39,704 nt of DNA from an uncultured Gammaproteobacteria bacterium (lineage in GTDB: Bacteria; Patescibacteriota; Patescibacteriia; 2-12-FULL-57-11), in contig CAZQBA010000003.1 in assembly GCA_964591635.1 (NCBI GenBank), positions 1-39,704 on the forward strand. The letters run 5' to 3'. A program made the translations under genes and the position numbers. Shown here in pieces: positions 1,629-37,898 of the stretch (position 1 is the first letter of the stretch; each line of letters begins with the position of its first letter). Below the pieces are notes generated by a model that saw nothing but the letters and a program-made list of their open reading frames with translations, was not told where the DNA came from and did not search any database.

Positions 1629-1949
1629 TTAGGATGCAAGGGGAAGATGCTGCTGTTCACCAGCCAAACGCTTGGCTAGACGCCGACCTTCCGGAGTCAA
1701 ACGAACGTCCTTAATATACCATTTTTCCGCGGTCCGAATGCCGAAGCCCACCAGGAACCCTTTCTCAATCAAACGCTCCATGGTTTTGGTAATGATCTTG
1801 ACGCGAAGTGTGGGTAGCACGCGGCTGTCTTTGGCGTAGAACCCGTCGAACAGGCGACGCGGTACTTTTCCGGAACGCGCCAATACTGTCTCCAAAATGA
1901 ACCGTTGGAGTTTTGAGAGCCGAATGTTAGGTGAAACGGATGTGGACAT
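1629..1949 (-). CDS. Small basic hypothetical protein, possible winged-helix DNA-binding fold
   Basis: 106 aa, ATG verified. The LSKLQRFILETV...MERLIEKGFL pattern looks like helix-turn-helix plus wing. It overlaps the aspS 3' end by 23 nt and sits 2 nt upstream of scpA. No family recognised. Confidence 0.55.
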   Translation of the reverse strand: MSTSVSPNIRLSKLQRFILETVLARSGKVPRRLFDGFYAKDSRVLPTLRVKIITKTMERLIEKGFLVGFGIRTAEKWYIKDVRLTPEGRRLAKRLAGEQQHLPLAS

Positions 1950-3312
1950 CAGTCAGGGCCTGATCGGGTACCGAAGCAGGGGCATCCATCATGAGGTCGC
2001 GCGCGTCCCCCGTCTTTGGCAACGGGATCACTTCGCGGATGTTTGGCTCGCCCGCAAGCAGCATCACCAAGCGATCAAAACCCCAAGCAATGCCGCCGTG
2101 CGGCGGTGCACCAAAGGCAAAGGCCTCGAACATGTGGCCGAACTGGGCATCGATATCCGCGTCTGACATACCCATGATTTCGAGCACTCGACGCAGAGCG
2201 TCTGGCTGGTGGTTGCGGATGGAACCGCCGGCGATTTCATAGCCATTCAGGACCACGTCATATTGGGTGGTGAGAATCTGGTCGATAGACGTTTTGCCCA
2301 TAAGCCAAGCCTGGTGCTCCGGCTTGGGGGCGCTGAACGGGTTGTGTGTGAACGTCCACCCTCCGTCGTCGGTCTTCTCAAAAAACGGGAAGTCCACCAC
2401 CCAACAGAAGGCGAGCAGGTTTGGGTCGTTCTTGTCTTCGCGGATATCCGGGCGGTCCGTGCCGTACTTTTCCATGGCCTCGGCATAGGAAATGCGCGGG
2501 AAGGGAACGCTTTGGATGCGTTTCTCCGGAGCCAGCGCTTTGACGAGCGCAATCAACAATTCTTCGTTCAAACGCATCACATCCTCGCGCTCAACAAAGC
2601 TCATTTCCATATCGAGCTGGGTGAACTCCGGCTGGCGATCTCCGCGCTGGTCTTCGTCCCGGAAGCAGCGGGCGAACTGGAAGTAGCGCTCGAGCCCGGC
2701 CACCATGAGGAGTTGCTTGAATTGCTGGGGCGACTGTGGCAAGGCGTAGGCCTGCTTGGGATGGACGCGTGACGGCACCAAGAATTCGCGGGCCCCTTCC
2801 GGTGTGCCGCGCGTCAGATACGGCGTGTCGATGTCCAAAAAGTCCTGGCCATGAAGCCAATCGCGGCAAAAGGCCATCATCCGGTCGCGCAGCATGATAT
2901 TTTTCTGCATCCGCTCGGTCCGCAAGTCCAGGTAGCGGTACTTCAAGCGTAACTCTTCGTTGATACCACGCGTATCCTTATCGAGCTCAAACGGCGGTGT
3001 CTTGGCCGTGTTCAAAATTTCCAAGCTCAACGCTTCCACTTCCACTGTGCCCGTAGGACTGTTTTCGTTCACCTGCTTGGCCGGCCGGGCATTGACCTTC
3101 CCAATAATTTTCACGACAAATTCGCTCCGGAGCTCACCGGCCTGGGCAACCAACTCCTTGTTCTCTGGGGTGAACACGACCTGTACCAAACCGCTCCGGT
3201 CGCGCAGGTCAATAAAGATGAGTTTGCCCATGTCACGACGCACGTGGACCCATCCCGCGAGCTCCACATCTCTGCCAACGTTGGCTACGGTGTCTTTAAT
3301 CCAAATACGCAT
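1927..3312 (-). CDS. aspS: Aspartyl-tRNA synthetase, bacterial-type core without the GAD insertion domain
   Basis: Motifs ALPQSPQQFKQLLMVAG, FRDEDQRGDRQPEFTQLDMEMSF and GGIAWGFDRLVMLLAGEPNIREVIPLPKT. The track ORF (to 3462) overlaps asnS. I chose the ATG at 3312 (MRIWIKDTVANVGR...), which lies 2 nt after the asnS stop. 461 aa. Confidence 0.9.
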   Translation of the reverse strand: MRIWIKDTVANVGRDVELAGWVHVRRDMGKLIFIDLRDRSGLVQVVFTPENKELVAQAGELRSEFVVKIIGKVNARPAKQVNENSPTGTVEVEALSLEILNTAKTPPFELDKDTRGINEELRLKYRYLDLRTERMQKNIMLRDRMMAFCRDWLHGQDFLDIDTPYLTRGTPEGAREFLVPSRVHPKQAYALPQSPQQFKQLLMVAGLERYFQFARCFRDEDQRGDRQPEFTQLDMEMSFVEREDVMRLNEELLIALVKALAPEKRIQSVPFPRISYAEAMEKYGTDRPDIREDKNDPNLLAFCWVVDFPFFEKTDDGGWTFTHNPFSAPKPEHQAWLMGKTSIDQILTTQYDVVLNGYEIAGGSIRNHQPDALRRVLEIMGMSDADIDAQFGHMFEAFAFGAPPHGGIAWGFDRLVMLLAGEPNIREVIPLPKTGDARDLMMDAPASVPDQALTDVHIRFT

Positions 3313-3314
3313 AG

Positions 3315-4610
3315 TTACGGGGTCAGACGGTTCAAGAGTCGGGGGAATGGGATAGTCTCGCGCACATGCTCCAAGCCGCAGATCCAAGCCACGCTGCGCT
3401 CCAAGCCAATGCCGAAGCCGGCATGCGGCACCGATCCATAGCGGCGGATATCGAGATACCACTCAAACGCTTCTTTGGGGAGCTTGTGTTCGGCAATGCG
3501 TTGTTCCAAGAGTGCCAGGTCATCAATGCGCTGGCTGCCGCCAATCACTTCGCCGTATCCTTCCGGAGCCAAAAGGTCGTTATTCAGCACATGGTCCGGT
3601 TCGTCCGGGTCCGGCTTCATGTAGAAGGCTTTGATAGCGGCCGGGTAGTGGTGGATGAAAATCGGACGGTCGTACTGCTTGGTCAAAAGCGTCTCGTCGT
3701 CGCCACCAAAGTCGTCTCCCATTTTGATGTCGGAGCCGAGTTTTTGGAGCTGGGTAATGGCGTCTTTGTAATGGATGCGGGGGAAATTGCCCTCAGTGCT
3801 TTTTTGGAGTGTGGTGGTGTCACGCTCCAGGGTTTTCAAGTCATCCGCCCGTCGCTCCAAGACGCGCTTCAAGATAAAAACCATCATGTCTTCCTGGAGT
3901 TGGATGTTCGCCTGCCAGTCCATGAATGCCGCCTCCGCTTCCAACATCCAAAACTCCGTGAGGTGGCGGCGCGTCTTGGATTTTTCCGAACGGAATGTCG
4001 GACCAAAACAATAGGTCTTGCCCAAGGCCGCGCTCGTCGCTTCCAGGTAGAGCTGCCCGGATTGCGACAGGTAGGCCACGTCATCGAAGTACTTCACCTC
4101 AAACAAATCTGTGGTGCCCTCGACCGCGTTCGGAGTGAAGATCGGCGAGTCCGTATTCACAAACCCACGTTCATAAAAGAAGGAACGGAGCGCGAAGGCA
4201 ATTTCGTTACGGATGCGCAGGATGGCTTCCTGGCGCGGGGAACGGATCCAGAGGTGGCGGTTGTTGAGGAGGAAATCGGGGCCATGGTCTTTTTTGCCAA
4301 TCGGGTACTCAGCTGCAACGGCGATGACCTCGACCCCCATGCCCTGGAGTTCCACTCCGGACGGCGAGCGCGGTTCGGCCTTCACCACTCCGGTTACGGC
4401 TACTGAAGATTCAATGGTCAGTCGCTGTAAATCAGTCCAAACATGCTCCGGCACGTCTGCCTTGGAATAGACCACCTGGATACGGCCGCTGCCGTCCCGC
4501 AACTGCAAAAAGAAGATGCTTCCGGACGACCGGAAGTTGTAGACCCACCCCTGCAGCACGACGTTTTCTCCTACCTGTTTTCCTGCCTCGGAGACCAATA
4601 ATTCAGCCAT
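3315..4610 (-). CDS. asnS: Asparaginyl-tRNA synthetase
   Basis: 431 aa. LWIRSPRQEAILRIRNE, YLSQSGQLYLE, FGPTFRSEKSKTRRHLTEFWMLEAE and GFGIGLERSVAWICG are class IIb AsnRS signatures. Confidence 0.9.
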   Translation of the reverse strand: MAELLVSEAGKQVGENVVLQGWVYNFRSSGSIFFLQLRDGSGRIQVVYSKADVPEHVWTDLQRLTIESSVAVTGVVKAEPRSPSGVELQGMGVEVIAVAAEYPIGKKDHGPDFLLNNRHLWIRSPRQEAILRIRNEIAFALRSFFYERGFVNTDSPIFTPNAVEGTTDLFEVKYFDDVAYLSQSGQLYLEATSAALGKTYCFGPTFRSEKSKTRRHLTEFWMLEAEAAFMDWQANIQLQEDMMVFILKRVLERRADDLKTLERDTTTLQKSTEGNFPRIHYKDAITQLQKLGSDIKMGDDFGGDDETLLTKQYDRPIFIHHYPAAIKAFYMKPDPDEPDHVLNNDLLAPEGYGEVIGGSQRIDDLALLEQRIAEHKLPKEAFEWYLDIRRYGSVPHAGFGIGLERSVAWICGLEHVRETIPFPRLLNRLTP

Positions 4611-8704: not shown

Positions 8705-9340
8705 TTATGAAGTGTGCTTACGAACTGCTTGCCAGACATCTGCGGCAACCGCGTCAATTTCCTGCGTTCCATTGATCGTCACTAACCGCTTGCGTCGACG
8801 GTAGTAGTCAATCACCGGTTCCGTGGAGTCATGGTAAATGGCAATGCGTTTTTTAATGGTCGCCGGCCGGTCATCGGCTCGCTGGATGAGTTTGCCGCCA
8901 CACCGGCAATGCTTGGCACCCGCCGCCAGCATGGTGGCGTGGTAGATTTTGCCGCAGCGGTCGCAGATCCAACGGCCAGACAACCGATGCAGTGCTTCGG
9001 CATCACTAATATGGACGTTGATGACGACAGCCGGCGGCCGGAAGTCTGCCAAGAAGTGGGCCTGGCCCAAGGTGCGCGGGTATCCGTCCAAAATCACGCT
9101 CCGTTCCCCACGGTGCATGAGGGCGAAACGGAGCATGACGCTCGTCACGTCATCTGGCACCAAGTGCCCTTTGGCCACGAACGGTGCAGCCAATTTCCCG
9201 AACTGGGTACCAGCCGCAATCTGCTCGCGAAACAAGGAACCAATGGAGAATGTCTGGACCCGTAAGCGACGGGCCAGGAGCTCGGCCTGGGTGCCTTTAC
9301 CCGAGCCTTGGACGCCTAAAAGGACAATGGTATGCGGCAT
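8705..9340 (-). CDS. adk: Adenylate kinase (zinc-lid form)
   Basis: 211 aa. P-loop GVQGSGKGTQ, DGYPRT, and lid CDRCG...CRCGG. Confidence 0.9.
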   Translation of the reverse strand: MPHTIVLLGVQGSGKGTQAELLARRLRVQTFSIGSLFREQIAAGTQFGKLAAPFVAKGHLVPDDVTSVMLRFALMHRGERSVILDGYPRTLGQAHFLADFRPPAVVINVHISDAEALHRLSGRWICDRCGKIYHATMLAAGAKHCRCGGKLIQRADDRPATIKKRIAIYHDSTEPVIDYYRRRKRLVTINGTQEIDAVAADVWQAVRKHTS

Positions 9341-9345
9341 GGTGG

Positions 9346-9376
9346 AAGAAACAAAAGATCCGGGATTTCCCGGATC
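9346..9376 (-). terminator. Intrinsic terminator or attenuator-like hairpin between secY and adk
   Basis: Minus-strand RNA is GAUCCGGG-AAAU-CCCGGAUC, a perfect 8-bp stem at 9357-9376. It is followed by UUUUGUUUCUU, 30 nt after the secY stop. Confidence 0.5.
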
Positions 9377-9408
9377 AGGGTAACACGCAGGAGTGCCGGA
9401 GACAACGC

Positions 9409-10689
9409 TTAGGCCCGGTCGTAATCGTGCATCTGGACCTGCGCCTGGATCTGCTTGACGATTTCAATAACGACCGAAACGACGATTAAGAGCGACGTGC
9501 CACCGATCACGAACGACTGGTTTCCCGTGGCCTGCTGGAGGGCCAGCGGCAAGACGGCAATCGCTCCCAAGAAGAGGGCGCCGGCCAAGGTGATGCGCTG
9601 CACGATGCTCGTCAAATACTGCACGGTGGACTGCCCCGGACGGATGCCTGGAATGAACCCGCCCTGCTTCTGGAGATTCTCAGCCACCTCTTCCGGTCGG
9701 AAGACGATTGCCGTGTAAAAGTAGGTAAAGGCCACCACCAGGACGAAGTACAGTACGCCGTACACGATCTGATTTTGGAAAGTGACAATCACCCACTGCG
9801 CGGCCGAAACGACCCAGGCGCTCTGGGCCCGCACGAAGAACTGGGCAATGAGCGGTGGGAAGAGGATGAACGAAATGGCGAAGATGATGGGGATGACACC
9901 CGCAATGTTCACCCGAAGTGGTAGATGATTGGTTGCACCACCCACCAAGCGGCCGCCGCGCATCTGCTTGGCATAGGATACCGGCACGTTGCGCTGGCCT
10001 TCCGTCACAAACACCACGCCGACGATCATTGCCACTGCCCCCAGTGCCAAGAGAATCAGGAGAATCGTGTCGGCCGTATCGAAAGTAAGGACGCCCTGCT
10101 GGATCCGCTGTGGGAGTGCGGCCACGATGTTGGCAAAAATCAGCAAGGAAATGCCGTTCCCCATTTTGCGCTCCGAAATGATTTCACCAATCCACATCAA
10201 GAACAGTGAGCCAGCCGTCATGGTGATCATGGTCACGACCCAACCAAACAGGTCCAGGTTCCCTAAGACGTTCTGCGGAGATTGGCGCAGGAGGGTCAAG
10301 ATACCAAAGGCCTGCAAGAGCGCCAACGGCACCGTCAGGTAGCGCGTCCATTGATTGATCCGGGCGCGACCGGCCTCCCCCTCTTTCTGGATCGCCTCCA
10401 GTTTCGGAATAATGATGGTCAACAATTGGAAAATGATGGACGAGGTGATATACGGCCCGACACCCAAGGATACGACGGAGAAGTTCTCAATAGCACCTCC
10501 CGAAAAAAAGGAGAGAAGCCCCAAGAACTGGTTCGTTTGGAAGTAGAGGCGCAGTTGTTCTGCATCCACCCCCGGAATCGGGATGTGAGCGAGCACGCGG
10601 TACAAAGCCAGGGCGCCAATAATCACGAGGAGCCCGGTACGGACCTCGCGGATCGTCCACATTTTTTTGATCGTATCCCCCACAGCCAT
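9409..10689 (-). CDS. secY: Preprotein translocase subunit SecY
   Basis: 10-TM pattern with GGAIENFSVVSLGVGPYITSSIIFQLL and GEIISERKMGNGISLLIF. The start is set at the ATG at 10689 (MAVGDTIKK...), which avoids a 32-nt overlap with rplO. The track start at 10731 remains possible. Confidence 0.88.
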   Translation of the reverse strand: MAVGDTIKKMWTIREVRTGLLVIIGALALYRVLAHIPIPGVDAEQLRLYFQTNQFLGLLSFFSGGAIENFSVVSLGVGPYITSSIIFQLLTIIIPKLEAIQKEGEAGRARINQWTRYLTVPLALLQAFGILTLLRQSPQNVLGNLDLFGWVVTMITMTAGSLFLMWIGEIISERKMGNGISLLIFANIVAALPQRIQQGVLTFDTADTILLILLALGAVAMIVGVVFVTEGQRNVPVSYAKQMRGGRLVGGATNHLPLRVNIAGVIPIIFAISFILFPPLIAQFFVRAQSAWVVSAAQWVIVTFQNQIVYGVLYFVLVVAFTYFYTAIVFRPEEVAENLQKQGGFIPGIRPGQSTVQYLTSIVQRITLAGALFLGAIAVLPLALQQATGNQSFVIGGTSLLIVVSVVIEIVKQIQAQVQMHDYDRA

Positions 10690-26356: not shown

Positions 26357-26429
26357 TCGGGCTAGCGGGACTCGAACCCGCGGCCTCTTGCACCCCATGC
26401 AAGCGCGCTACCAACTGCGCTATAGCCCG
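26357..26429 (-). tRNA. tRNA-Pro (anticodon GGG), 73 nt, CCA not encoded
   Basis: I folded the reverse complement by hand into a cloverleaf. Acceptor CGGGCUA/UAGCCCG, D-stem GCGC/GCGC, anticodon stem CUUGC/GCAAG, loop AUGGGGU, T-arm GCGGG-UUCGAGU-CCCGC, G37, discriminator A. Confidence 0.93.
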
Positions 26430-30846: not shown

Positions 30847-31833
30847 CTATTCAGGGACGATACTCAGCATTTGAGTAAGGAGCGGTCGAATATCTCGACC
30901 GATTGCCGGATACACGGCGGTGCTAATCCACTCCTCCCCATCACGCATGGCGAATGTACGTCGAAGAATATCAGCGATCTTTCCACGTCCAAACCGATAT
31001 TCAACACGATCCCAGAAACAAGCCGCGGTGTAATAAGAATGCACCTTCGGTTCTGCGTTAAACTCGGCCGTATCGAGTTTCCGATACGGTATCACCGCAT
31101 CAGATCCAACAAGAACAAAACCGCTCCCACGACATTCACGTAAGTTCTCGGAAGCTGGGGTTCCGGGTTCTGCGCGGAACTTCTCCTCAATGTACTGCGC
31201 CAAACCCTCATTGAACCAATACGCTATCCGTGAGGTGTGGACGAACCGATGCAACTCTTCATGGCCACTCAAACATGCGGTCACGAAATCTGCATCAGAT
31301 CGTTTCCAATACACGTCGTCGCCAAAAAAACGATAATTCAAGTCACCTGCTGATTCAATGTTGTTTATAGGATAATCCGGCGCCTCGCCGCAACACGTAC
31401 TGATGCGAGTTGTTGGGTGGGATTTGTATACTAACGCAATAGTTGTTCCCAGATATGGTCGCACACCAATGTACCGCTCAATCTTTTCAGTGCAAACTTT
31501 AAGCTGATGAAGAGACATCCGGGCATAATCCCCTGCTGCTCGATCCGAAACAGTCACTTTATATCGACCGTCACTCAGTACTAAATTCCCTTCAACATCT
31601 ACACTGCTTCGTAAATCAGTAAATGTGAGTGCGTCCACGCGCTGTTTCCAAAGTGGTTTTGGAGTGACAACTGCCTTGGCTGGAATTCGTTTTTGAACGC
31701 GAGGAAGAGCGCTGGATCGCACTTTTTTCTGCAATGAGGGATATATCGCCCAGGCGGCCGCACCGACGAGTAGACACCCAACGACAGTGGCGGTAATGAC
31801 TTTCGTCCGTGTTTTTACCGACACTCTGGTCAT
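30847..31833 (-). CDS. Membrane-anchored putative zinc metallopeptidase (HExxH...NEGxA, peptidase-MA-like), lower-GC gene
   Basis: 328 aa with an N-terminal TM segment (VITATVVGCLLVGAAAWAI). GHEELHRFVHTSRIAYWFNEGLAQYIE matches the gluzincin HExxH-(x)n-E / WLNEGxA logic. My hand-counted GC of several lines is about 43-58% (mostly about 50%), against about 60-67% in the flanks. Confidence 0.6.
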   Translation of the reverse strand: MTRVSVKTRTKVITATVVGCLLVGAAAWAIYPSLQKKVRSSALPRVQKRIPAKAVVTPKPLWKQRVDALTFTDLRSSVDVEGNLVLSDGRYKVTVSDRAAGDYARMSLHQLKVCTEKIERYIGVRPYLGTTIALVYKSHPTTRISTCCGEAPDYPINNIESAGDLNYRFFGDDVYWKRSDADFVTACLSGHEELHRFVHTSRIAYWFNEGLAQYIEEKFRAEPGTPASENLRECRGSGFVLVGSDAVIPYRKLDTAEFNAEPKVHSYYTAACFWDRVEYRFGRGKIADILRRTFAMRDGEEWISTAVYPAIGRDIRPLLTQMLSIVPE

Positions 31834-31848
31834 GAGAGAATCATATAA

Positions 31849-33858
31849 TCATTTCGTTTTCTTCACAATCGTCCCATCCCAATCTGCGGGTGGGGCTTCG
31901 TTGAGGAAGCGTTCGCAGCGGGTGACGTAGAGTTGCGGGAGAGGATGGTGGGGGTGGGATTGAACCAAGGCAGCGAAGGCATCTTGGGCTTTGCCGAACT
32001 CGCGGCCGAGATAGAGGGAGCGGGCGGCAGAAAAGTCACGAACGAAATTTCGCATAGCGTCATCTGCCCGGCTCTCTTCTTCCACCACGGAAAAAATCTC
32101 CACGGGTTCATTTTTCCCCTTCACGGCCACGCGATCAATTGCCAAAAGCAGGAAATGATCACCAAGAGCTGCAGCCGTAGTTTCCGTGACCAAGATGTCA
32201 GTGCCGTAATCCTTGTTTAAGCCTTCCACGCGCGACCCCAGGTTCACGCTGTCCCCCATCACCGTGTAATCAAACCGTTTGGCACTCCCAATGTTGCCGA
32301 CCACCATGGGGCCGGTGTTCACGCCGACACCGACAGACAAATGCACATTGTGGGGGAAGGCTCCTTCGGCATTAAGTGCGGCCAAACGGCGACGCATGGC
32401 AAGCGCAGTCTCCACGGCATGCACGGCATGGTTGGCATCCGCGAGCGGTGCTCCCCAGAAAGCCATGATGGCGTCTCCCATGTACTTGTCGATGACGCCA
32501 TGATGGGCAAACACGATATCCGTCATCTCCGAGAGGTAGCGGTTGAGCACAGCCACCAATTCTTCGGGCTTCAATTTTTCCGAAAGCGAAGTGAAGCCGC
32601 GCAGGTCGGAAAAAAGCACCGACATGTCCTTGCGCTCGCCGCCCAAGGCCAGCATGTCTGGCTTGGCAATGAGTTCGGCAGCAACGGAAGGTGACACGTA
32701 GCGTTCCAAAATAGTCTGGGTGCGGGTCCGTTCTACCTTTTCCTGCACCAACCGTTGGAACAGGCCAACCACGGCCGCCAATATGCCGGCCATTGGGACA
32801 AAGAACACGTCCAACAACCAGCCGGCTTCCACTACTACAAACGCGGCAATCACATAGCCGGCACCCAACAGCCCCAAAAGTGGTACGGCCAGGCGCAGGC
32901 TCAAGCCCAGCACCAGCCCACCCACCAAAAGGATGGCGGCGAGGATGACCAGGTCGCGAATGAGTGGAGGGAGTTCTTGGAGCGTCTGCCCAGAGAGCGC
33001 CGTGGCAATGGCGTTGGCATGGACCTCAATGCCGGGCATGGGTTCGCGCTTTGCCGTGGGCGTGAGCAGGACGTCATGCAAGTCCGGTGCCGTGGCCCCG
33101 ATCATGACAATGGCGTCCCGGAATAAGGTGGCGTCCATCCGGCCGGCCAAAACGTCTGCGGCCGAGACCGTGGGGAAGGTGCCTTTGGGTCCGGCAAAGT
33201 GGACGAGGAAGACGCCGCCTCCAGCACATGCAGTGTTGGGCAGCGACGCCTCGCGGATCACGGCGCAGAAAAACGGCTGGTTGCGTTCGGCTGCCACGCC
33301 ACCCACGGTGAGCGGCAGGCGGCGGAAGACACCGTCCGCATCCGCTGGGGTGTTCACGAAGCCAAGCGTGCTCACGGCCGTCAGTTCGGGGATGGGTGTG
33401 ATGGGACGGACGGCAAGCGGCGCACTGGCTCCGGCCTGACGGACAAATGTGGCTTCCAAGGGCAGCACCACGTTGCCAGCCTGTTCTATAGCCGCGGCCA
33501 AGAGCGCATCATCACCGCAACGTTCTTCACCACGGTCGGCACTTGAACAGGTTGGTTCCGGAAAATTGACGTCGTAGCCGATGGCCCGCGCACCAGACGC
33601 AGCCACTTTTTCTATAAGCGCGGCATGCACATTCCGCCGCCACGGCCAGCGACCGACTTCGCGGATGGACGCGTCGTCGATGGCCACAACGACGATGCCC
33701 GGTGGCGGTTCGTAGCCGACCATGAGGACGTCCGAAAGCACACCGCGGGCCGAAGCAAATAAATGGAAGTGCGCGGCAGCAAGAACAAGCACGGCTACCG
33801 CAATGAGCGGCACGGCGCCGCCCAACACCTGTGTGGCCTTACCCGGCCGGCGCAACAT
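31849..33858 (-). CDS. CHASE2-sensor class III adenylate/guanylate cyclase
   Basis: 669 aa. CHASE2 N-terminus (VVVAIDDASIREVGRWPWRRNVHAALIEKV...GYDVNFPEP), then 3 TM segments, then the cyclase core. Core motifs are VLFSDLRGFTSLSE, KYMGDAIMAFWGAP, GVNTGPMVVGNIGS and YTVMGDSVNLGSRVEG. Confidence 0.88.
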   Translation of the reverse strand: MLRRPGKATQVLGGAVPLIAVAVLVLAAAHFHLFASARGVLSDVLMVGYEPPPGIVVVAIDDASIREVGRWPWRRNVHAALIEKVAASGARAIGYDVNFPEPTCSSADRGEERCGDDALLAAAIEQAGNVVLPLEATFVRQAGASAPLAVRPITPIPELTAVSTLGFVNTPADADGVFRRLPLTVGGVAAERNQPFFCAVIREASLPNTACAGGGVFLVHFAGPKGTFPTVSAADVLAGRMDATLFRDAIVMIGATAPDLHDVLLTPTAKREPMPGIEVHANAIATALSGQTLQELPPLIRDLVILAAILLVGGLVLGLSLRLAVPLLGLLGAGYVIAAFVVVEAGWLLDVFFVPMAGILAAVVGLFQRLVQEKVERTRTQTILERYVSPSVAAELIAKPDMLALGGERKDMSVLFSDLRGFTSLSEKLKPEELVAVLNRYLSEMTDIVFAHHGVIDKYMGDAIMAFWGAPLADANHAVHAVETALAMRRRLAALNAEGAFPHNVHLSVGVGVNTGPMVVGNIGSAKRFDYTVMGDSVNLGSRVEGLNKDYGTDILVTETTAAALGDHFLLLAIDRVAVKGKNEPVEIFSVVEEESRADDAMRNFVRDFSAARSLYLGREFGKAQDAFAALVQSHPHHPLPQLYVTRCERFLNEAPPADWDGTIVKKTK

Positions 33859-35677
33859 AGACGGAAGCGTTGGCAGATTGGGTTTGTCCGGCCTCGCTGA
33901 ACGTGGCGGTCACGATGCCGGAGCCGTAGGAGTTTATGGTGGTGCGCAGGGTGCCGGCCGACATGCTCCCGACCTGCGGATTGTTCAGGCTCCAGCCGGC
34001 CTGAGTGGTGACGTCCTTACTGGAACCGTCGCTATATTCGGCCGTGGCCCGGAAGGTGACTTGGCCGCCGGCAGCAAGCGTAGTGTTGGCCGGCGTGAGC
34101 AGCAGGCGCGTCAGCGTCGCTGCCTGAAGCTGTTGGACTCGTATATCTACGGACGCACTCATACCTTGGTATGCAGCCTGGACAGCGCCGAGGCCGGGCA
34201 GGGTAGTAGTCAAAAACCCACGCGTCACGGTGCCGAGCGGCGGATCACCCAGAACCATCCACGTAGCCTCGTTCGTGACATCCCGGGTGGAGTTGTCACT
34301 TAAAGTGAGGATGGCCCTGAGCTGTTGGGTGTCGGACGCATTCATAATGGTCCGCGTGGCCACCACAGAAAGGCGCAGCGTGGTGGGCGCGGGCAGGTTG
34401 GTGTTGGTGTTCGCATTGGCATTCGCGTTGATGACCGGCTGGTTGATGTTGGTGTTCATAGCCTCTCCTGCCGGGGCATCCGTTGTGGTGGCAGGCGCCG
34501 ATGGGGTGAGAACCGGACGCAAGGCCGGACGGAAGACCGGGCGAGCCGTCACCATGGCCGTAACCAAGGTGCCGAACTCGGACTCCGGCGAAAGCTCGCG
34601 CTCCAAGAACGCCGGGAGGTCGATGGGCGTGCCATTGACCGGCGCCACCATACCGCGAGCTTCCATGAGCCGCCCCAACAGCCGGACCCGGCCGTCGGCA
34701 TCCATACCCTGATCAATGGCCCAGATCGTACGGAGGTATGCCTTCCACGAACGAGTGCTTTGTTCCTGTTTCCCGGCACGGCCCAAGGCCATGGTTTCGG
34801 CAAAACGGCGTGTGGCGAAATCCATGGCCAACGCCCGCCGGTCGGCTGCATTGGTGGTGAGGGCCACGCGGACCGACTCGCCCAAACGGCGGAGCGGGTA
34901 GAGCGGCGACCCGGGCAAGACCGCGCTCGCCCGACGCAACACGGCTTCACGCTGCTCACGGATGTGCTGCAAAAAACGTTCGTCAGCAGCCTGCATTTTC
35001 TTAAACCAGGCAGAACCGCGCATCTCGCCCGGCGTGGCCCGACGACGCATCCCCTCCCGGGTCCGACGCTCGGCCGACTTGGCTCCCCAGGCTTCTTCGC
35101 CGGCCGTCACATTCTGCCAGGCATCTGCATCTGCCACATCCTTCTTTTCTTGCATGGCCACGCCCACCGCGCCCTCCACCACCTGGACCACATCACCCTC
35201 GGCGTCACGGACATCAACAACAAAGGCCGTACCACGGACAGTCGCCACCATAGACGTGGTTTCCACTTGGAAGGCCGCCTCCGGATCGAGCAGCTTCACG
35301 ACCCGCGACCAGACCCGGCCGCCCACCACCTGAAGGGTGACCACGGATCGCATGTGGTTGTCCTGGTCCACGCCCGCCTGAGTGACGGTCACTTCGCTGC
35401 TTTCGTCGAGGCGGGCCGTTGCGCCATCAAAAAAATTGACTGTGGCCTGGCTCCTGGCATTGGTCCGGATGTGCTCTCCCGGCACCACTACCGAGTCGAC
35501 CGTCACCGGCCGCCAAGATCCGGGTGTGCCAATGAAGGCCTCGCCCTCATCCACCGTCACTGCAGCCACCGGTGTGGCCCGTTCTTCGGGCGCACTCAAG
35601 GCCCAGGCGTTCACCCCACCCACGCCAAACAGCACGCCGATGATAAGGAAGGCCGCAAGGAATGTCCGCTTTTTCAT
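33839..35677 (-). CDS. Secreted or anchored FecR-domain protein with a central helical region and two C-terminal Big_2-like Ig domains
   Basis: Signal peptide MKKRTFLAAFLIIGVLFGVGGVNAWA. FecR-like beta region (GEHIRTNARSQATVNFFDGATARLDESSEVTV...ATVRGTAFVVDV). The C-terminal repeats resemble Big_2. It overlaps the cyclase start by 20 nt. The ATG at 35677 is preferred over the TTG at 35701. Confidence 0.75.
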   Translation of the reverse strand: MKKRTFLAAFLIIGVLFGVGGVNAWALSAPEERATPVAAVTVDEGEAFIGTPGSWRPVTVDSVVVPGEHIRTNARSQATVNFFDGATARLDESSEVTVTQAGVDQDNHMRSVVTLQVVGGRVWSRVVKLLDPEAAFQVETTSMVATVRGTAFVVDVRDAEGDVVQVVEGAVGVAMQEKKDVADADAWQNVTAGEEAWGAKSAERRTREGMRRRATPGEMRGSAWFKKMQAADERFLQHIREQREAVLRRASAVLPGSPLYPLRRLGESVRVALTTNAADRRALAMDFATRRFAETMALGRAGKQEQSTRSWKAYLRTIWAIDQGMDADGRVRLLGRLMEARGMVAPVNGTPIDLPAFLERELSPESEFGTLVTAMVTARPVFRPALRPVLTPSAPATTTDAPAGEAMNTNINQPVINANANANTNTNLPAPTTLRLSVVATRTIMNASDTQQLRAILTLSDNSTRDVTNEATWMVLGDPPLGTVTRGFLTTTLPGLGAVQAAYQGMSASVDIRVQQLQAATLTRLLLTPANTTLAAGGQVTFRATAEYSDGSSKDVTTQAGWSLNNPQVGSMSAGTLRTTINSYGSGIVTATFSEAGQTQSANASVYVAPAG

Positions 35678-35703
35678 ACCGGCGCACTTTAGCAAAAACA
35701 AGC

Positions 35704-35737
35704 CAATAAAAAAAGGTTCCGCGCTCGGTGCGGAACC
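35704..35737 (-). terminator. Strong intrinsic terminator directly after the 460-aa orphan gene
   Basis: GGUUCCGC-7 nt-GCGGAACC (8 bp, 35715-35737) followed by UUUUUUUUAUU. It begins 2 nt after the TAG at 35740. Confidence 0.8.
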
Positions 35738-35739
35738 GC

Positions 35740-37122
35740 CTATCCCTCCAGCACTTGGGCCCGAATGCAGGGGTCGGACCAGTCCACCCAGAAGACCTCC
35801 CGCGGATGGAGGATGGGCAGGATCCGGAGCGCCTGCCGGAGCTTGTACCGCCGGTGATTGACCGCGCCAGTCGAGGTCCGGCTCACGAGGGCATTCGACA
35901 GGCTGTGCAGCTGGAGCTCAGCCGGCAGCCCATGGAAGAGGAGGTCCATGCGGACCACGCGGAACTGCTGGGACGATTCCGGGTTGCGCTGGTGGCGCTC
36001 CGGGCGGAAGAGGCGCGTATCCTCAATCCCCCGGACAACGCCGGGCATGGTGAAGACCCGTTCGCACAAGGCCTGCATGCCCAAGGCCATCTGCGGCTCG
36101 TTCTTGAATACCAGCTCGCCGCGTAAGAGGTCGTTCAGCATCCAGGGGTCGGTCTTCCCCCGGGCCATCATCTTGAAGAGCGTGTCCCACAACCGCTTCT
36201 GGCCTGCCGGGTTGTAGAAGACCGGATAGAACCGCTCCGCCGGTTCCGCCCGGTCGCCCGGTGCGTCCGGCTGGCGAAAGGCTGGCCCGCGGAAGTAGCG
36301 CGTGATGAACGGGGTGACCACCAACTCCTCGCCTTCGGCCAGGTGCATGTTCACGCCTTCGGCCGCAATGCGCACGGGGATCCCCGAATCCTTGCGGATG
36401 ATGACGTGGACTTCCGTTACCCGGTGCATGCCCGGGACGAAGAAGTGCTGCTCCAGGGCGTCGGTGAGGAGTGACTGGAACGACCGGCCGTTCGTGATCT
36501 GTTCCATGAAAACCCAGATGCCGAACAGGCGTTGGGCCAGGGCCACGTCGCGCCGCATCCGGAACAAGAGGATGCGCCGCAATCGGTCCGGATCGTCCAT
36601 CTGCGGCCGCGGTGGCGGTATGGACAAGGGGCAGCGGGCGATTTCACGCAACATCTCAATCGGATCGTGGCGCGTCTCCAAAGCGCCTTCCGAGGTCAGG
36701 TTGAACTGCAGCTCGTCGGCCACGTACCGCTCGTTGAACCAGGTGACGGCGGCACGGGCGTCCTCCACGAAGCTGCACAACCGCTCATAGAGCTGGTCGT
36801 CGGTCATCGTCTCGCGGTGGATGCCATGTGTCACCCGCAGCTCGGCAACGAGATGTGACCGCGCCTTCTTGTGGCAGCCAGCCGCCGCCAAACGGCGCAT
36901 GAGCCCGGCGTACAGCCGCTGCTTGTGCAGATACTGGTACGACAACCGTTGGTTTTGCTTGCGCAATGCCCGGATGTAGGCCCGCAAACCAGCTTGGTCC
37001 ACCGGCCAGTGGGCATGCAGCTCCTCAAACCCGCGGGGGTCGACCGGCGCATGCTCCGGCTGGTGGCGCGCCTCGCGGAACTCCTGCGCGTCCCCAAACG
37101 ATTCCAAGTGTTGTTCGGCCAT
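35740..37122 (-). CDS. Orphan 460-aa protein; C-terminal region (about residues 305-430) resembles a divergent RelA/SpoT (RSH) nucleotidyltransferase domain
   Basis: It is the longest frame, with strong third-position G/C bias. The ATG at 37122 is preceded by GGAGGAG. The motif series is QKRLWDTLFKMMARG / NDLLRGELVF / QQFRVVRMDL / PAELQLHS / NHRRYK. It parallels the RSH synthetase motifs RxKxxxSxxxK / DxxGxR / YRSxH / ExQxRT / HxxxYK in order and spacing. The N-terminal 300 aa were not recognised. Confidence 0.6.
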   Translation of the reverse strand: MAEQHLESFGDAQEFREARHQPEHAPVDPRGFEELHAHWPVDQAGLRAYIRALRKQNQRLSYQYLHKQRLYAGLMRRLAAAGCHKKARSHLVAELRVTHGIHRETMTDDQLYERLCSFVEDARAAVTWFNERYVADELQFNLTSEGALETRHDPIEMLREIARCPLSIPPPRPQMDDPDRLRRILLFRMRRDVALAQRLFGIWVFMEQITNGRSFQSLLTDALEQHFFVPGMHRVTEVHVIIRKDSGIPVRIAAEGVNMHLAEGEELVVTPFITRYFRGPAFRQPDAPGDRAEPAERFYPVFYNPAGQKRLWDTLFKMMARGKTDPWMLNDLLRGELVFKNEPQMALGMQALCERVFTMPGVVRGIEDTRLFRPERHQRNPESSQQFRVVRMDLLFHGLPAELQLHSLSNALVSRTSTGAVNHRRYKLRQALRILPILHPREVFWVDWSDPCIRAQVLEG

Positions 37123-37177
37123 TGCTCCTCCATTCAATAGCCCATCTGCAACAGCACCATGCATGCCGCAGAAACCG

Positions 37178-37206
37178 AACCTACCAACCCCCGCCCCTTC
37201 TGGCAA
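37178..37206 (-). promoter_or_regulatory. Sigma70-like promoter candidate for the 460-aa orphan gene
   Basis: Minus strand reads TTGCCA-17 nt-TAGGTT, immediately after the upstream terminator U-tract and about 55 nt before the ATG. Confidence 0.35.
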
Positions 37207-37239
37207 GAAAAAACGGACATGCCCCGTGGGGAATGTCCG
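37205..37239 (-). terminator. Intrinsic terminator between the 211-aa and 460-aa orphan genes
   Basis: CGGACAU-(U)CCC-CACG-GGG(C)-AUGUCCG (37214-37239) followed by UUUUUUCUU, 23 nt after the 211-aa gene stop. Confidence 0.7.
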
Positions 37240-37262: not shown

Positions 37263-37898
37263 CTAGGCCAGCGTGGGACGGAGCCCGCGTAATGCATGGG
37301 GCAAGGTCCGCATGATGCTGACGATCTGTTCGCGGCTCTTTGCCGCAATGAGCACGGTCGCCAGGCGTTCTTGCACCCGGCCGTTGGGCAGGTCATCGTC
37401 GCCCAAGGCGCGGATGGTGATCCCAGATTTGTTTGCCAGCGGCAGGCAGGCCGTCACCATGTCCCGTGTCGCCGACTCCATGAGCGGGATGCGTGCGATG
37501 CAGGAGTAGGTGCTGCGCTGTCCCGCACACATGACCACGTCCCGGTACCAGCCACGGAGGTCCGGTTCCTCCTTCAGGCGGACCTGATCGCGTCCCAGCC
37601 CGTTGATGACCAGGCGGACGCAATGGTGCCCCCGCAGCCCGCGCATCTTCTTCTGAACCGCCTGCAGCGTTGCCGCGGTCCGCAGGTCGTTCAGGACGTC
37701 CGGGCTGAAATCGCTAGGGTGCCAGAGCTCCAGGCCGATGCCCCCCCGGCGTTCCTCGACGATCCCCGTCACTGCCACTTCACCGCTCTCTTGGATGAAA
37801 CAGTGGACACGCGCGACGGGTCGCTGGGCGACCGCTGGCACGACTCCTGTGATGGGATCGACCCGTTCCTCCATCAGCATCTCTGCCGTCTTCTCCAT
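37263..37898 (-). CDS. Orphan 211-aa hypothetical protein upstream of the RSH-like gene
   Basis: The ATG at 37898 is preceded by GGAGGAGGAGAG; the track start at 37919 is a TTG. No motif recognised (no HD, Walker or HTH signature seen). Third-position G/C bias is consistent with coding. Confidence 0.55.
   Translation of the reverse strand: MEKTAEMLMEERVDPITGVVPAVAQRPVARVHCFIQESGEVAVTGIVEERRGGIGLELWHPSDFSPDVLNDLRTAATLQAVQKKMRGLRGHHCVRLVINGLGRDQVRLKEEPDLRGWYRDVVMCAGQRSTYSCIARIPLMESATRDMVTACLPLANKSGITIRALGDDDLPNGRVQERLATVLIAAKSREQIVSIMRTLPHALRGLRPTLA

Follow-up and report, generated by a model that had tools for sequence, protein, structure and literature searches.

A divergent RSH synthetase-type domain in a Patescibacteria protein family missed by standard annotation

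We analysed a 39,704-nt stretch of DNA (positions 1 to 39,704 of contig CAZQBA010000003.1; hereafter the window), in which a minus-strand gene encodes a 460-amino-acid protein resembling the RelA/SpoT homologue (RSH) enzymes. Unless an L-number is named with them, coordinates are positions of the window; L-numbers denote homologous or comparison loci. The open reading frame (ORF) was present as given in the original prediction, which was made from the letters alone and had proposed a cryptic, divergent RSH-like domain in the C-terminal third of the protein. This proposal was supported by profile searches, hhalign, sub-threshold matches to the Pfam family RelA_SpoT (PF04607), AlphaFold2 (AF2) modelling and Foldseek. 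Residues 296–440 are almost certainly a genuine, very divergent RSH synthetase-type domain with a Pol-beta-like nucleotidyltransferase fold, related to known RSH enzymes by homology. The sequence and model comparisons point to a new subfamily of RSH, in which the domain architecture is new and the ATP site rebuilt, closest to the synthetase domains of long Rel proteins. The features that carry this finding are:

35740..37122, minus strand: coding sequence of the RSH-like protein, 460 amino acids, stop codon included (ATG at 37122–37120, stop at 35742–35740)
35803..36237, minus strand: divergent RSH synthetase-type nucleotidyltransferase domain, residues 296–440 (profile, hhalign, AF2, Foldseek and conservation)
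36130..36132, minus strand: codon of D331, the predicted Mg2+-coordinating Asp of DxxGxR (51/51 relatives; aligned to the Asp of SpoT, RelA and Rel)
35917..35919, minus strand: codon of E402, the predicted catalytic or metal-binding Glu of ExQ (52/52 relatives; aligned to the Glu of EVQIRT/EIQIRT in SpoT and RelA)

Searched alone, the query protein matched no Pfam or NCBIfam family at E ≤ 10, no PADLOC model and no sequence in the Protein Data Bank (PDB). A word-indexed protein search returned the query itself and one relative (55% identity), which fits the earlier description of the protein as an orphan; that description did not hold when 1.84 billion cluster representatives were scanned exhaustively with HMMER and 52 relatives were recovered at E ≤ 1e-3. 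Most of them were 360–470 amino acids long, and their shared conserved part corresponded to residues ~296–458. PF04607 was matched by 10 of the 52 at E ≤ 0.1 (best E 3.9e-5). Twenty relatives scanned singly scored at most 20.5 bits (matches of 14–20.5 bits; the member with the best E value was not among them), and these sequences and the query fall below the curated cut-off of 27 bits. When a profile of the 52 relatives was compared with PDB sequences, the best matches were Rel of Bacillus subtilis (8acu, E 5e-6; 6yxa, E 1e-5) and of Staphylococcus aureus (7oiw, E 3e-4), and further Rel, RelA and small alarmone synthetase (SAS) entries ranked behind them. The alignment to Rel placed 'sRvKdpfdillKm...DlcgiklVf' over 'GRPKHIYSIYRKM...DLLAVRILV', with RxK and DxxG in register. 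Comparison of the family with the N-terminal halves of the Escherichia coli proteins by hhalign gave E values of 2.8e-5 for SpoT and 1.1e-5 for RelA, with RxK, D, ExQ and HxxYK in register, and the family hidden Markov model also retrieved SpoT and RelA from a local ORF set.

The AF2 model, built on the 52-sequence alignment, was of high confidence (mean predicted local distance difference test score, pLDDT, 92; predicted template modelling score 0.89). After residue 296 its elements followed the RSH order: a strand at 296–308, a helix at 311–321 with K309 just before it, a strand at 333–339 with D331 just before it, a helix at 342–356, a strand at 363–368, strands at 390–396 and 399–407, the latter holding E402, and a helix at 423–438 starting from H423. 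In terms of the motifs, the domain runs from beta1 through the K309..K317 helix, the D331 strand, a helix, beta3, the F387/R391 strand and the E402-x-Q404 strand to the H423-x2-Y426-K427 helix. The structure comparison called for by the original prediction gave a consistent answer. In a Foldseek search of the full-length model against the PDB, the first 28 matches were all RSH enzymes (best E 3e-3, probability up to 1.00, 120–186 aligned columns), including Rel of S. aureus, RelSeq, RelMtb, Tas1, B. subtilis Rel, SpoT, CapRel, RelP, an exported SAS and FaRel2. Among predicted viral structures (BFVD), the best matches were phage RelA/SpoT proteins (E 1.2e-4). A chance motif match in a domain unrelated to RSH is barely conceivable. 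The silence of the query on its own in Pfam, NCBIfam and PDB sequences and the modest best E value of the full-length Foldseek search would suit it, but chance resemblance is excluded by the agreement of the profile, hhalign, PF04607 and structure comparisons, and the motif residues are the most conserved columns of the 52-sequence alignment.

All five RSH motifs of the original prediction were found at the positions it quoted: QKRLWDTLFKMMARG at residues 308–322, NDLLRGELVF at 330–339, QQFRVVRMDL at 385–394, PAELQLHS at 400–407 and NHRRYK at 422–427. Its two metal-binding residues, D331 and E402, were kept in every relative that could be compared. Among the other motif positions, K309 and K317 were each conserved in 50/51 relatives, Q404 in 42/52, H423 in 49/52, Y426 in 51/52, N380 in 49/51 and S383 in 46/51; position 387 was mostly F or Y, and K, R or H predominated at position 391. 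Compared with the query, the consensus of the family was the more canonical (R-x-K...K, D-x-x-G/A, E-x-Q and N-H-x-x-Y-K/R), and RxK was kept in 40/51 relatives. The query itself retains K309, K317, D331, F387, E402, Q404, H423, Y426 and K427. The equation of QQFRVVRMDL with GYxSxH stood in part. Its mapping was ambiguous: hhalign anchored on N380, whereas a gap-free mapping with F387 as the Tyr and R391 as the His fitted the spacing of the beta-hairpin better.

The RSH-like protein is probably catalytically active, and we lean towards reading it as an ATP-dependent pyrophosphotransferase, most likely a synthetase of the alarmone type whose N-terminal domain gates it. ATP-Mg2+ would be bound through K309, K317, D331 and E402, and the beta,gamma-pyrophosphate would be passed to the 3'-OH of an acceptor stacked on F387. 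The acceptor would most likely be a purine nucleotide, and the protein would then serve growth control as an alarmone synthetase of the (p)ppGpp/(p)ppApp type; the assignment of a nucleotide alarmone as the product is tentative, and we hold it with some doubt. The N-terminal domain, together with a beta-arm that precedes the catalytic domain, would form a regulatory or gating module that controls access or activity.

Several points weigh against this reading. The query lacks the Arg of RxK (G307), the Gly (R334) and the Arg (E336) of DxxGxR, the Ser and the His (R391) of GYxSxH and the Arg-Thr of ExQxRT, and the loss of these canonical residues could possibly mean altered chemistry or lower activity; Pfam, as described above, is silent on the query. 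tRNA-modifying toxic SAS (toxSAS) carry no clear sequence signature (bioRxiv 10.1101/2021.04.30.441581), so the acceptor is not readable from sequence. A Patescibacteria metagenome-assembled genome (MAG) encodes a canonical long RSH of ~510 amino acids near a CHASE2 cyclase (L064, 1748–3277, plus strand; E 5e-103 to E. coli SpoT), and the family therefore need not be the only alarmone synthetase of the lineage. The linkage of the gene to ndk, described below, may be plain conserved gene order. Finally, among 16 genes sampled, the G+C content at third codon positions (GC3) was the highest of the window in the RSH-like gene (0.86) and in the ORF just upstream of it (0.81), the others lying at 0.59–0.76 except for a low-GC 328-amino-acid ORF (0.44). 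Together with a strong Shine-Dalgarno (SD) motif, this composition slightly sets the two genes apart from the core genes.

The substituted residues would also suit a pseudo-enzyme or nucleotide-binding regulator, in which the RSH fold was kept and catalysis in the sub-clade was lost or changed to another transfer. We judge this explanation improbable. In its favour, the query clade has neither the RxK Arg nor the DxxG Gly and further lacks the GxR Arg, the GYxSxH His and the Arg-Thr of ExQxRT, and PF04607 is blind to the query; the sub-clade has, however, conserved the acidic pair, the two lysines, an aromatic residue at 387 and most of HxxYK, and in SpoT itself Ala stands where DxxG has its glycine. 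The pattern of arginines also argues against a loss of function. R-x-K was combined with D-x-x-G/A in 40 of the 50 relatives that covered both columns, while the other 10, counted with the query, had Gly or Asp at 307 and Arg at 334, with zero exceptions either way. In a neighbour-joining tree, nine of the 10 R334 sequences fell in one clade and the tenth (P0052) was placed elsewhere, so that the exchange probably arose at least twice. In RSH structures, the adenine and the phosphates of the donor ATP are contacted by two arginines, one from RxK and one from DxxGxR. R334 lies two residues before the DxxGxR Arg on the same strand and would, by strand geometry, face the same side. The perfect complementarity of the exchange is the pattern expected of compensation, and it looks like the relocation of an ATP-contacting Arg from position 307 to position 334 that would preserve ATP binding. 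Since the exchange is read as compensation, we infer that the query clade is still an enzyme.

Two further regions precede the catalytic domain:

36442..37122, minus strand: N-terminal all-alpha domain, residues 1–227 (AF2 pLDDT 92 in the full-length model, 88 for the domain alone)
36238..36441, minus strand: beta-rich arm, residues 228–295, with long strands at 228–243 and 265–280 (model secondary structure)

The original prediction had described a large, uncharacterised N-terminal region, and the domain at 1–227 indeed had neither a sequence nor a structural match. Foldseek found no PDB match for it (best E 2.3, probability <0.1), its profile gave nothing significant against PDB sequences, and no Pfam or NCBIfam family matched. 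In the model it is a confidently predicted, all-helical fold without a structural counterpart. A degenerate HD domain (a pseudo-hydrolase, as in RelA) was considered for this part of the protein; the lead had come from a HMMER alignment that reached the 'LADRLHNMR' helix of Rel and from a poor 403-column Foldseek alignment to SpoT (rank 21). It was rejected, as the family had no conserved His/Asp motif in residues 1–227, hhalign gave a probability of 0.3% against the HD domain of SpoT, and the model of 1–227 had no Foldseek match. The strands of the beta-arm run into the first strand of the catalytic domain in the AF2 model, and two of its residues were among the most conserved of the family (F228 in 49/49 and R275 in 48/50 relatives). 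F228 and R275 may contribute to the active site.

The SYNTH domain of long RSH enzymes (Rel, RelA and SpoT; PF04607) was the best profile and structural match of the family. The two have in common the order of strands and helices and, in register, the Lys of RxK, the second helix Lys, the Asp, the Glu of ExQ and HxxYK, and the query also has an aromatic residue at the acceptor-stacking position. Unlike long RSH, the query has no HD hydrolase or pseudo-hydrolase domain and no C-terminal TGS, helical or ZFD/ACT-RRM domains, ending at residue 460, 33 residues past HxxYK; the query clade has its Arg in DxxR instead of RxK, and a 70-residue beta-arm with F228 and R275 stands ahead of the domain. 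The SAS RelQ, RelP and RelV are single-domain proteins of ~200–250 amino acids that have no hydrolase or ribosome-binding domains, are chromosomally encoded and are non-toxic. Like them, the query is chromosomal and without hydrolase or ribosome-binding domains, and Foldseek matched it to RelP (6fgj, 6ex0 and 6ewz). In contrast to SAS, it has 460 amino acids with ~295 extra N-terminal residues, and the family profile matched SAS more weakly (3l9d, E 0.078; 6fgk, E 0.18) than long Rel.

The RSH fold is also shared with FaRel2, PhRel2 and CapRel of the toxSAS and CapRel group, toxins that pyrophosphorylate tRNA (Foldseek matches 7ztb, 9erv and 8pu4). The enzyme of CapRel is gated by a regulatory domain fused to it in one chain. 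CapRel carries a C-terminal pseudo-ZFD antitoxin or sensor, whereas the extra domain of the query is N-terminal and matches no solved structure, and the structural match to CapRel covers the catalytic domain of the query only. The query further differs from toxSAS in having no bi- or tricistronic antitoxin arrangement, no PADLOC match and, by the loci inspected and one viral-contig scan, no defence-island or phage context. Tas1, the (p)ppApp-synthetase effector of a type VI secretion system, has the RSH fold in common with the query (6ox6_A, E 2.5e-2; template modelling score 0.39, normalised to Tas1). Unlike Tas1, the query has no secretion-system or immunity-gene context, another appended domain and a host among the Patescibacteria with reduced genomes.

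A further reading departs from all of these systems. The family could be a Patescibacteria-specific RSH class in which the helical domain and the beta-arm sense a signal peculiar to host-dependent, ultra-small bacteria and in which the product, a new nucleotide messenger or a pyrophosphorylated macromolecule, is not (p)ppGpp. The rebuilt site would then comprise the shift of the Arg from RxK to DxxR and the replacement of GYxSxH by N-x2-S-S and F-R-x2-K/R. We consider this reading somewhat unlikely.

The family was observed in Patescibacteria only (Uhrbacteria and Magasanikbacteria), and named relatives had been deposited as 'hypothetical protein' of Ca. Uhrbacteria and Ca. Magasanikbacteria. 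In the library searched, no relevant paper tied RSH enzymes or alarmone synthetases to Patescibacteria, Uhrbacteria or the candidate phyla radiation (CPR), and the text of a 2020 RSH classification makes no mention of Patescibacteria, Uhrbacteria or the CPR (PMC7229694). Besides the HMMER scan, a protein search with the family alignment gave three matches, a search of genome contigs with the two closest sequences found no relative, and a search of metagenome contigs found none for one clade and three loci for another. The survey of homologues and their neighbourhoods that had been proposed with the original prediction revealed that several divergent lineages keep the gene at a stable locus, close to ndk and to the region of ribosomal-protein and EF-G genes. 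The window itself belongs to the chromosomal core, with genes for SecY, the ribosomal proteins L2 and L3, EF-Tu, EF-G, a DEAD-box helicase, adenylosuccinate lyase and two class II tRNA synthetases. In the query clade, the gene order is glmS-comEC-ndk-(variable ORF)-RSH-like-fecR/DUF5667-CHASE2 cyclase, which was maintained down to 31% identity. In L012, L065 and L094, ndk directly adjoins the RSH-like gene with no ORF between them. L094, which holds a distant member (E 2.8e-5 to the query), has S12-S7-EF-G downstream, as in the window. In other clades, the gene lies beside HU and malic enzyme (L010), beside superoxide dismutase and a Na/H exchanger (L011), among glycolytic genes (L098) or, on a 763-kb contig, among RuvX, RecO, ValRS and TyrRS (L099). 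The chromosomal position was thus stable in lineages whose proteins share only ~20–37% identity, and the surroundings were housekeeping genes, not defence islands. The gene is vertically inherited at a stable housekeeping locus (comEC-ndk-X ... S12-S7-EF-G).

In the slot between ndk and the RSH-like gene, the window has a 211-amino-acid ORF (37263–37898, minus strand) with a strong SD motif, its own terminator-like hairpin and no Pfam match. ORFs in the same slot of related loci had 170–245 amino acids; similarity among them was undetectable even when the two closest loci were compared, and the slot behaves as hypervariable. The 211-amino-acid ORF was rejected as a conserved antitoxin, as it had no similarity to the ORF of the closest locus and no ORF occupies the slot in L012, L065 and L094. 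The original prediction had considered a toxin-antitoxin or phage-defence effector, and this suggestion found no support. A fused toxin-sensor effector of the toxSAS or CapRel kind would pyrophosphorylate the tRNA 3'-CCA end or make toxic (pp)pApp, with the N-terminal domain restraining it until a trigger, such as a phage, arrives. This is unlikely in our view, although several observations would fit. CapRel (7ztb), FaRel2 (8pu4) and Tas1 (6ox6) were among the structural matches; a large non-catalytic domain sits on the same polypeptide, as in CapRel; and the hypervariable upstream ORF of the close clade could be a fast-evolving antitoxin or immunity gene. The RSH-like gene also has a strong SD motif and an unusual GC3, and a tRNA substrate is compatible with the sequence (bioRxiv 10.1101/2021.04.30.441581). 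A further point for such an effector is the basic character of the synthetase domain, with a pI of 10.0 in the query and a family median of 8.8; pI and net charge of the catalytic domain were not decisive as a hint of tRNA binding. Against these stand the lack of a PADLOC match, the absence of relatives from viral contigs in one scan with query-specific peptide patterns, and best sequence and structure matches to housekeeping long Rel rather than to toxSAS. There was likewise no conserved partner gene, ndk being the direct neighbour in some lineages; a terminator-like hairpin and ~140 nt separate the upstream ORF from the RSH-like gene; the housekeeping position is stable across divergent lineages; and by Foldseek the extra domain, which is N-terminal, is unlike any solved domain of CapRel. 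The RSH-like protein is not part of a toxin-antitoxin pair.

On the other side of the RSH-like gene, positions 31849–35701 (minus strand) encode a FecR/DUF5667/Big_2 protein and a CHASE2-class III nucleotide cyclase, a tightly coupled and often overlapping gene pair that is conserved in many Patescibacteria lineages, and also in some Nitrospira, Chloroflexota and others, whether or not the RSH-like gene is present. The three genes might form one signalling module in which an envelope signal controls both a cyclic nucleotide monophosphate and the RSH product. The same-strand order of RSH-like gene, FecR and CHASE2 cyclase in L001, L005–L009, L012, L013, L065 and L096, which persists to RSH-like proteins weakly similar to the query (phmmer E 6e-21), speaks for such a module. 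We regard it as very improbable: a strong terminator lies between the RSH-like gene and fecR, also at L001; 77 of 80 loci with the pair had no RSH-like gene; and the RSH-like gene occurs without the pair in L010, L011, L094, L098 and L099. As synteny extends over the entire block, comEC and ndk included, shared ancestry explains the adjacency, and the adjacency to the FecR-CHASE2 pair is lineage-specific synteny. A functional coupling was accordingly rejected on the 77/80 count.

Loci retrieved with the neighbouring CHASE2 cyclase were titled Patescibacteria, mostly Candidatus Uhrbacteria. The same FecR-CHASE2 pair was also seen in MAG records titled 'uncultured Gammaproteobacteria' (L013, L017, L018, L021–L023, L025–L027 and others), whose cyclases were 36–60% identical to the query cyclase, with ndk nearby in L013 and L027. 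We suspect that the 'uncultured Gammaproteobacteria' titles of these third-party MAGs are wrong.

The RSH-like gene is a monocistronic unit with its own signals:

37125..37131, minus strand: SD motif GGAGGAG, 2 nt before the ATG
37178..37206, minus strand: promoter-like element TTGCCA-N17-TAGGTT (8/12 by eye; below the sigma-70 scan threshold)
35705..35737, minus strand: intrinsic terminator, GGTTCCGC-loop-GCGGAACC followed by TTTTTTTATT (8-bp stem with 6 G-C pairs, T7; hairpin and T-run at 35737..35715), directly 3' of the stop codon

The ATG at 37122 was favoured over an upstream TTG at 37206, as the nearest homologues begin at the same Met-Ala/Asp, and this match of the N-termini identifies the 460-amino-acid form as the gene. 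The SD motif, the strong terminator and the self-contained unit described originally were confirmed and are kept across homologous loci. Of the nine homologous loci inspected, eight had a strong AGGAG or GGAGG motif 10–20 nt ahead of the assumed start (L001, L005, L006, L007, L094, L096, L013, there before an in-frame TTG, and L065, by position only), and L012 had no strong SD motif within ~110 nt of its assumed start. A hairpin with a T-run followed the preceding gene in 8/9 homologous loci inspected, and the L001 homologue likewise ends in an equivalent terminator. In the window, the upstream ORF stops 140 nt before the RSH-like start and has its own terminator-like hairpin at 37227..37213. 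It was also correct that most window genes have no SD: by a rough count, strong motifs before a possible start within the first 60 codons were found for 4/36 minus-strand ORFs, namely EF-G, the RSH-like gene, the ORF just upstream and a 431-amino-acid class II tRNA synthetase ORF (internal GTG, codon 17). A fifth candidate, before an internal TTG at codon 45, was implausible.

The claim of an own promoter was upheld in part. A consensus scan of the leader of the RSH-like gene gave no promoter of the sigma-70 type; by eye, the same element occurs at the same place in L001 (TTGCCA-N17-TAGGGT) and L006 (TTGCCG-N17-TAGGTT), while the surrounding intergenic DNA visibly differs between loci (by eye, unaligned). 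The gene would accordingly seem to have a weak but conserved promoter-like element. The leader at 37123–37180 (minus strand) and those of L001, L005, L006, L007, L065, L094 and L096 all form a stable G+C-rich hairpin a few bases 5' of the SD motif. The hairpin differs in sequence at each locus and had z values of -2.2 to -3.1 in 6/8 leaders. In the window leader, a second stem in which GGCUAUUG pairs with CAAUGGCC covers the AUG, and in the L065 leader CCUCC pairs with GGAGG. These hairpins may exert translational control of the RSH-like gene. No riboswitch or other known RNA was detected in the leader (no Rfam match at E ≤ 1).

Some other genes were recorded alongside. The 328-amino-acid ORF at 30847–31833 (minus strand) had no Pfam match and a G+C content of 0.49 with a GC3 of 0.44, compared with 0.59 G+C for the remainder of the window, and may be foreign DNA. 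In L094, the gene after the RSH-like gene (8705–9691, plus strand) encodes a SAMHD1-like HD phosphohydrolase (PDB 2q14, E 5e-11; SAMHD1, E 4e-9). It was rejected as an RSH hydrolase on account of this SAMHD1 likeness, and no homology was found between the two 328-amino-acid ORFs, that of the window and that beside the L094 RSH-like gene. The L094 order of ndk, RSH-like gene and HD-dNTPase-like gene has a nucleotide-metabolism theme, in one lineage only. At 1927–3462 and 3315–4610 (minus strand), the window holds two neighbouring genes for class II tRNA synthetases (Asp/Lys/Asn-type), both with an OB domain for anticodon binding; their longest ORFs overlap by ~150 nt, and one start is probably further downstream. 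The sole Rfam match of the window at the gathering threshold was a tRNA gene at 26357–26429 (minus strand).

RSH enzymes are a central growth-control switch of bacteria, and newly characterised branches have brought new chemistry, including (pp)pApp synthesis, tRNA pyrophosphorylation and phage sensing by CapRel. A further divergent RSH branch is in itself not very surprising. The new RSH-fold family proposed originally is borne out by 52 relatives, of which those scored singly lie below the Pfam cut-off, and by its new architecture, and it was missed by the standard annotation of Pfam, NCBIfam and PADLOC. To our knowledge, the physiology of Uhrbacteria and Magasanikbacteria is almost unknown. 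The analysis provides a family of 52 representatives, a confident model, predicted catalytic residues, a natural Arg-relocation variant of the ATP site and a new N-terminal candidate regulator. It makes the use of alarmone-type signalling by CPR bacteria, and the molecule that would be involved, directly testable in vitro. Should the family prove to be a Patescibacteria-specific class with a product other than (p)ppGpp, it would represent a growth-control pathway in the CPR hidden from current annotation.

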